A stretch of 64,000 nt of DNA from a phage, in assembly GCA_018175075.1 (NCBI GenBank), contig GCA_018175075.1_4100.1; one strand, 5' to 3'. Positions 19,454 to 34,271 of the stretch are shown here, piece after piece (position 1 is the first letter of the stretch; each line of letters begins with the position of its first letter). The position numbers and the translations under genes are program-made. Under the pieces are notes generated by a model. That model was not told the origin of the DNA, ran no database searches, and saw only the letters and a program-made list of their open reading frames with translations.

Positions 19454-20116
19454 ATGATGAAATCAAAATTAGGTTTGTTTTATAAAAACTATTTTGTTAA
19501 ACAACGTAAATTTATAAAAAAATATTTCTCTGGCGAGAAGTCTAGTCCTATAATCTTTAAAAGACCAAGTTATAATACTTACTTAGCTGGTGCTAAACAG
19601 TCTAAGAAATTTATTACTCTTTTACATAAAAACAAAATTAAAGCTTCTTATGTTGAAACGAGAAGAAACTCATCAATAACTCCTGGTGATTTTATTGAGT
19701 ACGGATGTTTCAATATTAAGTACAATGATAATACATACTTTATGGATATTGATTGTAATACATCCAATCTTTTTAACATTGTAGTAAATCCATTAAAACA
19801 ATATAATGTTTATGGTGATTCTATTATCAAATTAATCAAAAACAAAGATAGCTTTGATTTTGAAATAAATGTTTTAGATGATAATTTTGACGAAGTACCA
19901 GTAAACCCTGAAATCTGTGATATTTTAAACAGTTTAAAAGGTAGTACCTACACTATATCATCTGATTTAATGTTTCAGTACTCATTAATCCATAAAGATA
20001 TTGAAAAGTATATTGAATGCTCCAAAATTTTGAATTATCTTTACGATGAATTTAAAAAGAGTTCTAAAATAACCGCATACACTTTGTACAATATTCCTAA
20101 AATGGTGAATCTTTGA
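19454..20116 (+). CDS. hypothetical protein, 220 aa (AT-rich)
   Basis: ATG with AAGGAG RBS; 3' end converges on minus-strand cluster. Confidence 0.45.
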   Translation: MMKSKLGLFYKNYFVKQRKFIKKYFSGEKSSPIIFKRPSYNTYLAGAKQSKKFITLLHKNKIKASYVETRRNSSITPGDFIEYGCFNIKYNDNTYFMDIDCNTSNLFNIVVNPLKQYNVYGDSIIKLIKNKDSFDFEINVLDDNFDEVPVNPEICDILNSLKGSTYTISSDLMFQYSLIHKDIEKYIECSKILNYLYDEFKKSSKITAYTLYNIPKMVNL

Positions 20117-21249
20117 CAAATACAGTACTGGCAACTCCACCGTCTGTAACATATTGTCCAGTACTGTAAATTTGTATACCATCGGTTAAGTAAGTTCTGT
20201 ATAAAGTTGCTGTAACATATACGTTATTCATATTCATCTCTATTGGTAGTACACATTTGGTATAGGCTGAGACATCTGTTTGTGTACCTATACCTAATTG
20301 ACCTGCGTTATCGCCTGTGTTATAACCAGTTGCGTAAACACCTAATGAAGTTATAATATGATTAGAAAAATATGAATAACCCACACTGCTTCTTATTATA
20401 TCACCTGGTGCTTGTGTTGTTTGTCTTAACGAAATATATGTTTGTGATGTAGAACCATTTGCTAACTGACCAAAGTATTGTCCACCACCATGATATGCAA
20501 ATAATTTATTACTACTATTATTACTTGCTATAGCAAAAGCGAAGTAACTTGAGTTTGTTGTATAATCTTTCACCGTATAGGTATTAGTTATTTGAGAACA
20601 TAACGTGTACTTTGAATATAACGTCATGTCGGTTGTACCTACGCCTGATATTGCACCAGTATAATACAATCTCCCATCGGTTCCAATAAATCCTTGCATA
20701 AGAAAATTTGCCAGTATTTTGGATGGTGTTACTCCAGTAGGTACTGTTCCTTGTACAAATGATGAAAGTGAATCGGTACTTCTACCATTTCCCAGTTGTC
20801 CATAACTACCATAACCCGTATTCCATATCGTGTTGTCTGTACATAATACGCTTAATGCACCTGCACTAACTGCAATTTGTTTTATTGTTTTTCCAAGTGC
20901 TGTTATCCTATCAAACACTATCTTTGCAGAAGCCCACGTTGTTGACTTATCAGTTGATAAACCGAATGATGCACCATTTCCAGCATACCACATCGTATTA
21001 TCTTTCTTTTTAATTAATGTTGACTCATACCCGAACCCATAGATCTTCTACGTTTGTATTGCACAAAACCCATTTGGTTTGTGTTATAATATTACCTATA
21101 CCCATTTGCCCAAACTCTTGAGAGCCTCTACTGTACAACGTACCATCTGACATAAGGGCAAAAACTGTTGTATCAGATGAAGCTATTTTTGTAACAGAAG
21201 GTTGTATGTTCTTTTTTGATGATGTGATAATTCTTCCAAAGGGTAGCAT
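20097..21249 (-). pseudogene. RCC1-like repeat protein paralog A, frameshifted
   Basis: N-terminal MLPFGRI fragment (21025-21249) and C-terminal RCC1-like fragment (20097-20993) in different frames; join restores alignment to paralogs. Confidence 0.6.
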
Positions 21250-21320
21250 TGTATCCTCCAAATGTAAATCGTTATTATATTTAGGACAAAAAAATGCCAG
21301 TACAAAATACTGGCTTTATT
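21250..21320 (-). promoter_or_regulatory. late-type cassette: terminator hairpin, TATAAT element, GGAGG RBS
   Basis: GCCAGTA...TACTGGC hairpin then T-rich, TATAAT, RBS. Confidence 0.5.
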
Positions 21321-31829: not shown

Positions 31830-33032
31830 CTATTGTTGCCATAACTGCGTTGGCATTAATGTTAGTGTAGTAATACTATAAGTGCCATCAGGCAATCTAC
31901 CACCATTACCATTCCAGCCACCACATGCATATAATTTATAATCTTTAGTAATTATTATGGTTCTGCTCCAATCTTTAGATGCCATAAGAACATTGTCATA
32001 ACCACCACTTATTGCACTAAGATTAAAAATAGCCCAAGTCTTAACTAATGTATTAGTTCCATTACCTTCTTGACCATATGAGTTAGGACCACTACTTCTA
32101 ACATATGGTGCGTATTGTGCCATAGGTGAACCAATTGATGCATTTCCCATATTACTTGGACAAATAAAATTACTGTACTTACTTACATCAACCGTGACCG
32201 ATGTATTCCTAATTGGTGTTAGCTGATTTACTGATGTAGTCGTACCATTACCAGCTTGTCCAGTATTGTTAGACCCACTATAATATACAGGCCCACCAGT
32301 AGTAAACCACCAAGTAACATTGTATGTAGTACTAATATGTTCTACATTACTAATCACGAATTTGTTCAAATATACAACAGAACTACCACCACATCCACTT
32401 TCACCAAAGTTATCCTTACCACAAAACCATGCATCTTTATTTGATTTAATATAGTGCGTTCCTTGTAATGAACATGCCATATCTATAACTTCACCCATAT
32501 TAGTCATAACTGTTAGTGTAGGGATTGAATTTTGATTACCCGACCCACATTCACCATTAGTATTTTTTCCACACGCAATTACTCTACCATCTGTTAATAA
32601 TATTCTAGTACTTTCACCTATATATACACTCTTGATCATATTAGCCATTACGCCAATTTTATTAAATGAAGCAGTAACATCAGTCCATGTTCTCAAATAA
32701 CCACTAACAGGTGTTGCATCTCCATAATCAGAAAATGCACCCACCGACCCAGTGTAGTATATTTTATTATCCAAATCAACCATCAATGAACCATGAACAC
32801 CCAGCCAATAGGCTGCACAGTTACGTGCAAGTACAGTAAATGACGGAACTGCTGCTGAATTCCCAAGACCAAATTGAGACATGTTATTACTACCATAACC
32901 ATATAAAGTATTAGTTGGGCTATGTAGATACATACAGTTTGTATAATGTTGTTGTAAAACATCTGAGAACTCTATAGGTTCTGGCCCTGGTGCAATATTA
33001 CCGTACTTAACCATTCTAGCAAAAGGTAACAT
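31830..33032 (-). CDS. RCC1-like repeat protein paralog K, 400 aa
   Basis: MLPFARMVKYGNIAP; repeats NNMSQFGLG, SYGQEGNG. Confidence 0.7.
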   Translation of the reverse strand: MLPFARMVKYGNIAPGPEPIEFSDVLQQHYTNCMYLHSPTNTLYGYGSNNMSQFGLGNSAAVPSFTVLARNCAAYWLGVHGSLMVDLDNKIYYTGSVGAFSDYGDATPVSGYLRTWTDVTASFNKIGVMANMIKSVYIGESTRILLTDGRVIACGKNTNGECGSGNQNSIPTLTVMTNMGEVIDMACSLQGTHYIKSNKDAWFCGKDNFGESGCGGSSVVYLNKFVISNVEHISTTYNVTWWFTTGGPVYYSGSNNTGQAGNGTTTSVNQLTPIRNTSVTVDVSKYSNFICPSNMGNASIGSPMAQYAPYVRSSGPNSYGQEGNGTNTLVKTWAIFNLSAISGGYDNVLMASKDWSRTIIITKDYKLYACGGWNGNGGRLPDGTYSITTLTLMPTQLWQQ

Positions 33033-33104
33033 ATTTCCCTCCTTTATTCATTATATTATATTTAATCAAAAATAAAAGCCAGTACTTGAGTACTGGCATA
33101 TCAA
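33033..33104 (-). promoter_or_regulatory. late-type cassette: terminator hairpin, TATAAT, GGAGG RBS
   Basis: perfect palindrome GCCAGTACT-TGA-AGTACTGGC plus TATAAT/RBS. Confidence 0.55.
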
Positions 33105-34271
33105 TTACGAAAAACGTGGATCATCAAGAACAAACACGGTACTACTTGGACCACCTTGTGTGGTGACAGCACTAGTACTGTAAAGAAAGTTACCATCTGT
33201 CATATAAGTTCTACGATTCGTACAAATAACTCTTACTTTATTCATATCGATATCAGGATTAGGTAATGGACATGAAGTATACACTGATACATCAGTACTT
33301 GTTCCTATTCCCAGCGTACCTTCATTTGTGGTTGAACCGCTATTCAACCCACTAGCATATATACCACTGCTTGTAATAACAAAAGTGGCGTAGAATGGAG
33401 AACCTTCACCTATATTTAATTTAGTTCCAGGTGGTTGTCTTGCCGCAGCAACCGCACCATATGCTTTCCCACCAGATGTGGCAAGATTACCAAGAGCACC
33501 ATACTGTTGTTGTCCACCATTATACACTGTGTTAGTGCCATCACTGTTAGTGTGGATACCAATAGAATTATAGTTACTGTTGCTATATACTAAAGCGGCA
33601 TTAGAAGTAACTGTATTTCGTGTATATACTTTATATTGTTGGGTAAAATTACCACTAGTGGACGTACCCTGTACAGTTCCAGTGTAGTATATATATCCGT
33701 CTGTACCAATGAATGAGTGCATAACACTACCTGCAAAAATTTTTTCTGGAGTAACACCTGACGGTATTGTTGATTGTACAAATCTACCCACTACATTTGT
33801 TGTTGTATTATTTCCCAATTGACCGGAGTCACCATAACCACTTGACCATATGGTATTGTTCTCAAGAAGAACACTAATTGATAATCTTGATAAAGCTATT
33901 TCTTTAACATCACTTTCTAATGTATCAAAAAATGAAGTACAATTTGTCCAAGTGTTCACTACGCTAGAACTAACACCAATTTGTTTATTATCACCAGAAC
34001 TATAATAATTCCCATCATATGTTTGTATAAGTATAACAGAACCACCAACCCATACTTTATCAACTGAACCAAACGTTCTTGTCCATGTGGTAACTATATC
34101 CCCGCTATTATTACCCAATCCAAAGCAACCACTACTATCTACGCCTCGTACATATAAATCTCCTGAAGTCATCAGAACTGCACAGAATGATTGTGCACCT
34201 TTAACATCTTTAATTGGCTCTGGTTCAGGTGCAACATTTCCATAATCAAACATTCTAACAAAAGGTAACAT
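33105..34271 (-). CDS. RCC1-like repeat protein paralog L, 388 aa
   Basis: start at MLPFVRMFDYGNV; repeats DSGQLGNN, NEGTLGIG; first gene of the cluster. Confidence 0.7.
   Translation of the reverse strand: MLPFVRMFDYGNVAPEPEPIKDVKGAQSFCAVLMTSGDLYVRGVDSSGCFGLGNNSGDIVTTWTRTFGSVDKVWVGGSVILIQTYDGNYYSSGDNKQIGVSSSVVNTWTNCTSFFDTLESDVKEIALSRLSISVLLENNTIWSSGYGDSGQLGNNTTTNVVGRFVQSTIPSGVTPEKIFAGSVMHSFIGTDGYIYYTGTVQGTSTSGNFTQQYKVYTRNTVTSNAALVYSNSNYNSIGIHTNSDGTNTVYNGGQQQYGALGNLATSGGKAYGAVAAARQPPGTKLNIGEGSPFYATFVITSSGIYASGLNSGSTTNEGTLGIGTSTDVSVYTSCPLPNPDIDMNKVRVICTNRRTYMTDGNFLYSTSAVTTQGGPSSTVFVLDDPRFS

Follow-up and report, generated by a model that had tools for sequence, protein, structure and literature searches.

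The window analysed here, a 64,000-nucleotide stretch of contig GCA_018175075.1_4100.1 (GenBank assembly GCA_018175075.1), belongs to an Asteriusvirus, a 121Q/PBECO4/phAPEC6-like jumbo phage of E. coli. Its open reading frame (ORF) listing contains 12 consecutive minus-strand paralog loci at positions 20097-34271, numbered below as cassettes 1 to 12. Eleven of them begin with the same short N-terminal peptide, which we call the tag, and most continue into an RCC1-like β-propeller body. The region is 86-98% identical to Escherichia Asteriusvirus phages UB, 121Q, SP27, PBECO4, phAPEC6 and others; the aligned share of the 14.3-kb query in any single record is 20-38% and never exceeds 38% in one place, which gave an early hint of mosaicism among strains. 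Its synteny is kept across genera. In Pectobacterium phage CBB the locus adjoins the genome end or terminal repeat, and gene numbering suggests the same position for GAP32 (genes 530-002) and phAPEC6 (549-010).

The cassette array

33105-34271, minus strand: cassette 12, tagged RCC1-like propeller, 388 residues, beginning MLPFVRMFDYGNV (ORF list, PHROG, motif)
31830-33032, minus strand: cassette 11, tagged RCC1-like propeller, 400 residues (RCC1 PF00415 at 36.9 bits, over its gathering score)
30712-31821, minus strand: cassette 10, tagged RCC1-like propeller, 369 residues, lacking its own promoter module
29473-30642, minus strand: cassette 9, tagged RCC1-like propeller, 389 residues (Pfam, PHROG)
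28211-29401, minus strand: cassette 8, tagged RCC1-like propeller, 396 residues (Pfam, PHROG)
27400-28137, minus strand: cassette 7, tagged, predicted TNF-like β-sandwich plus glycine-rich domain, 245 residues, not RCC1
26154-27329, minus strand: cassette 6, tagged RCC1-like propeller, 391 residues (PF25390 110 bits, RCC1 34 bits, PHROG)
25336-26145, minus strand: cassette 5, tagged, RCC1-like, shortened by a frameshift to 269 residues
24966-25335, minus strand: 3' remainder of cassette 5, open in another frame, RCC1-like (..YNNYGQLGNN..)
23846-24955, minus strand: cassette 4, tagged RCC1-like propeller, 369 residues, modelled with AlphaFold2, lacking its own promoter module
22598-23767, minus strand: cassette 3, tagged RCC1-like propeller, 389 residues (Pfam, PHROG, motif)
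21321-22526, minus strand: cassette 2, tagged RCC1-like propeller, 401 residues, beginning MLPFPRMIKYANK (Pfam, PHROG)
21025-21249, minus strand: 5' fragment of cassette 1, 74 codons, degenerate tag MLPFGRIITSSKKNI, ending at a frameshift
20097-20993, minus strand: 3' part of cassette 1, untagged RCC1-like ORF of 298 residues (phrog_4219, E 9e-63)

Cassette 1 (20097-21249) is probably a pseudogene. Its decayed tag reads MLPFGRIITSS, with Y10, G11 and N12 lost, and phage UB (98% identity) carries the same split, its 5' piece annotated as a separate 225-nt coding sequence. An earlier note on this DNA had described twelve RCC1-like genes that all share an MLPF start. The array of twelve consecutive minus-strand loci stands, with the reservation of one frameshifted copy and one member that is not RCC1-like; the shared start holds for 11 genes by motif search, while ORF 20097-20993 begins MWYAGNG. 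In cassette 5 one extra G in a GGG run ends the product early, and about 125 further RCC1-like codons are open in another frame, to 24966. The same 269-residue product is predicted in UB, 121Q, phAPEC6 (gp007) and one divergent database cluster, and the frameshift could be a tolerated truncation or programmed frameshifting.

The tag and the bodies behind it

A six-frame search of the 64 kb for LPF.R[MLIV]..Y[GA]N returned 11 matches, all at the starts of array genes and none elsewhere. In these genes the tag reads M-L-P-F-x-R-[ML]-x-x-Y-[GA]-N, with subtypes MLPFARMVKYGN, MIPFARISKYGN and MLPFPRLIEYGN; residues 1-13 are 78% identical pairwise, and the bodies of the window paralogs are 23% identical (14-38%). 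Codons 1-4 are invariant, and codons 6 (AGA/AGG), 10 (TAC/TAT) and 11 (GGA/GGG/GGT/GCA) vary. This synonymous variation at positions 6, 10 and 11 indicates that selection acts on the peptide. Could the identity stem from chance, or from an assembly duplication, the artefact that the earlier note had named as its own possible undoing? The contrast with the bodies, the repeat pattern, the independent genomes and the codon variation rule out both: the repeats, none of them long, are 60-90% identical and occur only in the 5' tag and the module between genes, and orthologous cassettes occur in many independent genomes.

The tag lies outside the fold that it precedes. In AlphaFold2 models of cassettes 4 and 7, residues 1-10 have a predicted local distance difference test score (pLDDT) of 51-53 and residues 11-20 one of 71-73, and in both models the first strand of the fold starts at residue 20. 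The tag is thus an appendage, and a short linker, often rich in proline, comes after it. Its invariant side chains F4, R6, Y10 and N12 all occupy even positions, a periodicity that might fit an extended strand pairing with a partner. No PDB chain contains the peptide, as judged by a search of PDB sequences. Several other roles were considered and rejected. A velcro strand closing the propeller is incompatible with a tag that AlphaFold2 places outside the fold at low confidence and that also heads non-propeller proteins; the sequence has no hydrophobic core that would mark a secretion signal; and neither conservation at the DNA level nor gene conversion explains the identity, given that synonymous codons vary and the tag is kept across genera.

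How far does the tag reach beyond this phage? Scanning IMG/VR with a degenerate DNA pattern of the tag gave 21 stretches in about nine jumbo-phage contigs of 109-378 kb (121Q, GAP32, Pectobacterium phage CBB, Serratia phage BF and Erwinia relatives, and uncultured phages), two of the matches being due to chance. With the first 20 residues cut off, the tagged ORFs fall into an RCC1-like cluster of 36, window genes included, alongside LamG/ConA-like or unclassified groups of 200-260 residues, a Kelch group and a glycine-rich pair; Pfam recognises Laminin_G_3 (PF13385) at E values down to 2e-12 and Kelch (PF24681) at 4e-32. In related jumbo phages, therefore, the tag sits on at least four unrelated folds. 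All nine of the CBB genes CBB_536, 537 and 548-554 start MLPF...Y[GA]N, and an uncultured 366-kb phage carries RCC1, Kelch and LamG-like cassettes in one array, all beginning MIPFAR(I)..YGN. A profile of the window's first 30 residues, independent of the IMG/VR pattern yet itself built from tagged N-termini, was searched against 1.84 billion representative proteins and matched 68 clusters at E<=0.001. Of these, 63 match from residue 1; in three more the ORF start was called too far upstream, so that the tag comes later, and the last two are false positives; a Pfam scan of 62 of the 68 found 53 to be RCC1-like. A 42-residue tag alignment searched against 5.8 billion proteins yielded only four candidates and was uninformative.

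Directly upstream of CBB_554, at about 15141-15230 on the minus strand of CBB, a ATGTTACCTTTT tag start is joined, in the wrong frame, to the final ~25 codons of a glycine-rich body (..GGAVRIIYGDDRSFPNTLTNNQ*). It looks like the deletion remnant of a cassette.

Among the bodies, the RCC1-like fold predominates. Pfam RCC1 or RCC1_2 exceeds its gathering score in six of the ten proteins scanned (cassettes 2, 4, 6, 8, 9 and 11), PF13540 in cassette 11 falling exactly at its 22.0-bit cut-off, and cassettes 3, 5 and 10 remain under the gathering score. The whole-domain profile PF25390 matches at E 1e-12 to 1e-31 with 47-110 bits, below its 150-bit cut-off, and phrog_4219 matches 11 array genes at E 1e-59 to 1e-106. 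For cassette 4, AlphaFold2 was given 22 paralogs and homologues, and the model reaches a pLDDT of 90.4 and a predicted template-modelling (TM) score of 0.89. Foldseek against the PDB pairs it with UVR8 (4dnw, E 2e-22, TM score 0.80) and also with HERC2 RCC1-like domains, RPGR and RCC1, so that cassette 4 is, by this model, a seven-bladed β-propeller of the RCC1-like domain superfamily. Pfam, PHROG, AlphaFold2 and Foldseek together support the propeller assignment for 11 of the 12 genes; extending it to all twelve, as had been proposed, fails on the 245-residue gene, which has no RCC1 Pfam match and a different fold. PHROG 4219 is filed under "DNA, RNA and nucleotide metabolism" solely through the RCC1 name, and since the window proteins align to positions 419-800 of its 867, some of its members must be about twice as long or fused.

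The tagged proteins share the seven-bladed fold and repeat signature of the eukaryotic RCC1-like domains (UVR8, the HERC2 domains, RPGR and RCC1), but at 15-21% identity, with half the charged-residue content of a eukaryotic match and with no Ran or chromatin context. The eukaryotic function cannot be transferred to them. Charged residues make up 9-14% of the tagged proteins versus 23% of other window ORFs, and Ser, Thr, Asn, Gly and Tyr together 41-54% versus 28%, with isoelectric points of 4.7-9.6. Neither a DNA-binding Pfam domain nor basic character was found in them (Lys plus Arg 5-8%), an indirect test. Judged from sequence, their composition is that of fibre tips and adhesins, unlike that of DNA-binding proteins.

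Cassette 7 is the member that departs from the propeller. It has no Pfam match and belongs to phrog_4474 instead of phrog_4219; its homologues carry the glycine-rich domain PF21722. The model shows a TNF-like sandwich followed by a glycine-rich lattice, as in Pam3 gp24-like tail-fibre adhesin domains, and the predicted fold is accordingly tail-fibre adhesin-like. Searches of PDB sequences with cassette 7 and with its family profile gave no matches. The tail fibre gp24 of cyanophage Pam3 docks through an N-terminal helical bundle, where cassette 7 has the 12-residue tag and a short linker; the tail-tip proteins gp33 and gp29 of mycobacteriophage Bxb1 stand with Pam3 gp24 among the closest known systems. 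Against UB, 121Q and phAPEC6 the protein is 99-100% conserved.

The annotation of this gene is troublesome. In phAPEC6, gp004 is a 303-nt alternative-frame ORF annotated in place of a 244-residue glycine-rich gene, and the same spurious ORF, of 102 residues, lies at 27441-27749 in the window. Because the gene is mis-annotated there, the phAPEC6 mass spectrometry (MS) table cannot report the glycine-rich protein. At about 9112-11108 of phAPEC6 (MK817115) the GenBank annotation also appears to omit a tagged RCC1 ORF of 396 residues, so that the true number of tagged genes in phAPEC6 is probably above the published eleven.

Outside this lineage, glycine-rich homologues (PVP-SE1 gp19 and those of many ~150-kb phages) start M-x-E-[LM]-[LM] (MLE[LM][LM]), which indicates that the tag has been exchanged on a conserved body. 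Starts of this other kind (MLEIM.., MNEMM.., MFEMM.., MLELL..) occur on glycine-rich proteins of rV5/Certrevirus-type and other phages, and on Cronobacter phage CR8 gp268, a homologue of tagged CBB_536; CR8 gp267 has such a start too. The loci with the alternative N-terminal peptide are 4944-5606 and 6362-7027 in CR8 and 7001-7843 in PVP-SE1 (gp19). The PVP-SE1 homologue sits among replication genes and is uninformative on location. By sequence, the MxE-type N-terminus may be a parallel tag system; a putative second, analogous tag of the form M-x-E-[LMI]-[LM], borne by LamG-like and glycine-rich proteins of rV5/Certrevirus-type phages, suggests that short docking tags may be a wider, undescribed principle.

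Virion evidence and competing explanations

Are the tagged proteins part of the particle? The evidence comes from published MS on orthologues and relatives in phAPEC6 and CBB. In phAPEC6, gp003, 005, 006, 007, 009, 010, 549 and 551 are among 62 virion proteins (Wagemans et al. 2020, PMC7247149); gp007 is the counterpart of cassette 5, and its frameshift-shortened product is thus found in virions. In CBB, the proteins CBB_536, 537, 548, 549, 551, 552 and 553 are structural, with coverage up to 51% (Buttimer et al. 2017, PMC5259590). The CBB peptide report (PMC5259590) includes LFEYANVIIPPNYK, which is residues 7-20 of CBB_536 with an Arg before it, YANVIVEYATK (residues 10-20 of CBB_548) and VVSNEYEINLDFSR (residues 15-28 of CBB_553). 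The first two reach into the tag, over its residues 7-12 and 10-12; mature CBB particles thus contain tag residues, and the tag is not cleaved off. In phAPEC6, CBB and 121Q alike, tail and capsid carry unexplained hair-like fibres.

We favour the reading, at a probability of roughly 0.55, that the tag is a portable virion-docking peptide on exchangeable surface binding modules. The locus would then be an array of cassettes that supply a 121Q-like jumbo coliphage with binding modules for its virion. Each cassette encodes, in this order, a tag of 12-13 residues (M-[LI]-P-F-x-R-[MIL]-x-x-Y-[GA]-N), a linker that is short and often rich in proline, and a compact body. The bodies, low in charge and rich in Ser, Thr, Asn, Gly and Tyr, are eleven RCC1-like seven-bladed propellers, two of them frameshifted, and one TNF-like/glycine-rich adhesin domain, and they would bind ligands on the host surface. 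The tag, specific to the phage lineage and kept on the mature protein, would dock all modules at one common site, most likely external, on the hair-like fibres, the tail or the capsid surface as in phAPEC6, 121Q and CBB. With every module docked at one site, the virion would show mixed binding specificities. Cassettes are gained, lost and replaced between close relatives, and the flanks would mediate the exchange. The folds, the portability of the tag and its exclusion from the folds stand on sequence and model data, and virion presence and tag retention on published proteomics of relatives; docking and ligand binding are inferred. An anchoring peptide fused to variable binding domains had been suggested in the earlier note, and the proposal has gained from the four or more folds, the different N-terminus of glycine-rich homologues in other phage groups, the unpacked tag, the virion MS and the tag residues in virion peptides.

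Several points weigh against this reading. External location and the tag contact are inferred, and AlphaFold2 draws the tag as a short low-confidence helix. Classically, propellers of the RCC1 and Kelch types bind other proteins rather than glycans. The phAPEC6 proteins have low MS coverage, 3-17%, and the CBB evidence comes from relatives with other body folds, not from the window phage. The inner body of phAPEC6 would need several hundred copies of some protein. Lastly, the IMG/VR search pattern itself partly dictates the invariance at M1, P3, F4, R6, Y10 and N12 in that set, although the profile search supports it.

What else could a shared N-terminus on such proteins do? The main rival, which we judge unlikely, makes the tag a T4-like capsid-targeting sequence that would send diverse cargo to the scaffold core of the prohead, so that it ends up inside the head, in the inner body or for ejection and perhaps for anti-defence. 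The parallel is close: T-even internal-protein genes are likewise diverse and share a short conserved N-terminal leader that sets entry into the particle (PMC3012670). Rak2-like phages own a T4-type prohead protease and scaffold, an inner body is present in phAPEC6, the tagged proteins occur in virions at low abundance, and strain-to-strain variation of the locus would be expected in an arms race. The T4 leader, however, is cleaved off by the prohead protease from small, basic, internal cargo, whereas tag residues persist in mature CBB virions, and the window paralogs, as read from their sequences, have no consistent (L/I)-x-E site after the tag and no conserved Glu cleavage motif. Moreover, the tagged bodies are charge-poor, not basic, lectin, propeller and adhesin domains of 22-45 kDa, one of them tail-fibre adhesin-like and others lectin-like LamG, and a 40-kDa seven-bladed propeller would probably have to unfold to traverse the tail tube. 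A little more doubtful still is a tag that binds some shared non-structural partner, such as a chaperone or an intracellular host or phage factor, with virion presence incidental or secondary. RCC1 and Kelch propellers are typical protein-interaction scaffolds and fibre proteins such as Pam3 gp24 require chaperones, but 15 different tagged proteins were found in purified virions by two independent studies, some at 35-51% coverage, and both composition and one fold are adhesin-like.

It is very improbable that the shared N-terminus has no docking role and was merely duplicated together with a promoter and ribosome-binding site, kept for expression or homogenised by gene conversion. Growth of the array by tandem duplication is clear, and eight cassettes are near-identical both in their first 12 nt (ATGTTACCTTTT) and over the 30-45 nt before them. 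This rival is largely refuted by codons 6, 10 and 11, which vary synonymously with the amino acid fixed, by cassettes 4, 5 and 10 and the entire CBB array, which keep the tag while lacking the upstream module, and by the persistence of the tag across genera with non-aligning DNA, on non-homologous bodies and always at residue 1. We give least credence to the annotated role, in which DNA-condensing or chromosome-organising proteins order the packaged 350-kb genome. It draws on the database names "regulator of chromosome condensation" and "putative DNA condensation protein", on virion presence and on speculation in PMC7247149, where eleven RCC1-like genes were noted in phAPEC6 and related by the authors to DNA organisation and the inner body. 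The name, though, goes back to eukaryotic RCC1, which is a Ran exchange factor, and the proteins showed no DNA-binding feature; low charge (10-13% charged residues) and the spread of isoelectric points (4.9-9.3) weakly refute the role; the same tag and locus bear lectin-like, Kelch and adhesin-like bodies; and the gene set varies between near-identical phages, which would be surprising if it served packaging at its core. We find no support for the "DNA condensation" annotation.

That receptor-binding proteins dock through short N-terminal peptides is a known principle. In KP32-type Klebsiella phages the second receptor-binding protein has a short conserved N-terminal docking peptide, and in adenovirus a tail motif of the fibre binds the penton base. 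In both, as we propose for the array, receptor-binding bodies that vary are held at a common virion site by a short N-terminal peptide. There, however, a phage has one or two such bodies, in the form of trimeric fibres or spikes, whereas in the array one tag serves as many as a dozen small modules that appear to be monomeric and that span at least four folds. A bolder form of the docking hypothesis, which we hold tentatively, would have M-[LI]-P-F-x-R-x-x-x-Y-G-N serve all Rak2-like jumbo phages (Asteriusvirus, Mimasvirus, Eneladusvirus and uncultured relatives) as a universal plug-in docking peptide, so that any small domain bearing it would be displayed on the virion. The common site would be multi-copy, possibly the hair-like fibres, and the adhesin set of each particle combinatorial and reshuffled by cassette exchange.

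How much of this is new? The RCC1-like cluster of Asteriusvirus (phAPEC6 gp549-gp010; 121Q, PBECO4, UB) lies at the same locus, with several cassettes 96-100% identical in protein; the cluster and its virion association are already published and the genes annotated in GenBank. The claim that the arrangement is undescribed therefore falls for the RCC1 cluster and its virion presence in phAPEC6 (PMC7247149) and survives for the tag, of which we found no description. Published work on the cluster treats its products as possible DNA organisers, with no mention of the tag, the non-RCC1 member or the cassette flanks. A text search of the literature for the tag peptide found no description, and one on RCC1 in jumbo phages found nothing beyond phAPEC6. 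Nor did we find a published account of a tag that spans three genera and at least four folds, of its persistence in virions, of the 245-residue member as an adhesin or of the cassette flanks. If the docking hypothesis is true, it would replace a misleading "DNA condensation protein" label on a dozen genes per genome in a group of phages that are now isolated with therapy in view, give a handle on the role of the RCC1, Kelch and LamG paralog families and on what decorates hairy virions, and provide a 12-residue tag with which a very large phage particle could be made to display foreign domains.

Cassette turnover, flanks and neighbouring genes

Against UB, 121Q and phAPEC6 the cassettes are collinear, and they are either 96-100% identical, 74-88% identical or without an ortholog (<40%). 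Cassette 12 falls in the last class, its best match in these phages being just 31-39% identical, and the cassette content of the window is unlike that of any record compared. Within one genome pair the synonymous divergence (dS) of cassettes runs from 0.005 to about 0.6, a spread which indicates that they have different histories. The ratio of nonsynonymous to synonymous divergence is 0.10-0.42 (0.16-0.31 in informative pairs), as befits functional genes under overall purifying selection. Because cassette content differs between near-identical phages, the array is a candidate determinant of host range or adsorption.

Eight of the 11 tagged genes have a near-identical upstream module, AAATATAGTATAATGAATAAAGGAGG followed by ATG, present only in the array, and a hairpin (GCCAGTAC..GTACTGGC) with its T-run lies after eight genes. 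A scan for terminator-like sites found 17 versus 6.7 +/- 2.9 expected. Cassettes 4, 5 and 10 directly adjoin the preceding gene; the Shine-Dalgarno sequence of cassette 10 lies immediately 3' of the cassette 11 stop codon. The PA5oct paper gives a TATAATA/TTGAC promoter consensus only. The flanks are as follows.

34272-34318, minus strand: promoter-like TATAAT and Shine-Dalgarno, a divergent copy, upstream of cassette 12
33033-33104, minus strand: intergenic module; hairpin GCCAGTAC..GTACTGGC plus T-run at 33078-33097, then AAATATAATATAATGAATAAAGGAGG and ATG
30643-30711, minus strand: intergenic module; hairpin 30684-30708, promoter-like element, Shine-Dalgarno
29402-29472, minus strand: intergenic module; hairpin 29446-29468, promoter-like element, Shine-Dalgarno
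28138-28210, minus strand: intergenic module; hairpin 28181-28207, promoter-like element, Shine-Dalgarno
27330-27399, minus strand: intergenic module; hairpin 27372-27394, promoter-like element, Shine-Dalgarno
23768-23845, minus strand: intergenic module; hairpin 23813-23831, promoter-like element, Shine-Dalgarno
22527-22597, minus strand: intergenic module; hairpin 22572-22590, promoter-like element, Shine-Dalgarno
21296-21314, minus strand: terminator-like hairpin after cassette 2

The neighbouring genes run on the plus strand. At 8800-10059 lies a highly charged protein of 419 residues with a basic N-terminus, which matches PHROG 20398, "virion structural protein", at E 9e-170 and in which no Pfam domain was found. 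By size it may be phAPEC6 gp035c (46 kDa, 29% MS coverage). Opposite in composition to the tagged proteins, it is, going by its sequence, more likely than they are to be an internal head protein. An ORF resembling HNH/NUMOD4 homing endonucleases (8253-8795) and one resembling the T7 gp0.7 protein kinase (11183-11857) lie among the small genes of the plus strand that precede the array. Divergent from the RCC1 array, a tandem array of at least 19 tiny ORFs of 59-84 residues occupies 34374-38765, in which blastp distinguishes two paralog families of 11 and 5 members.

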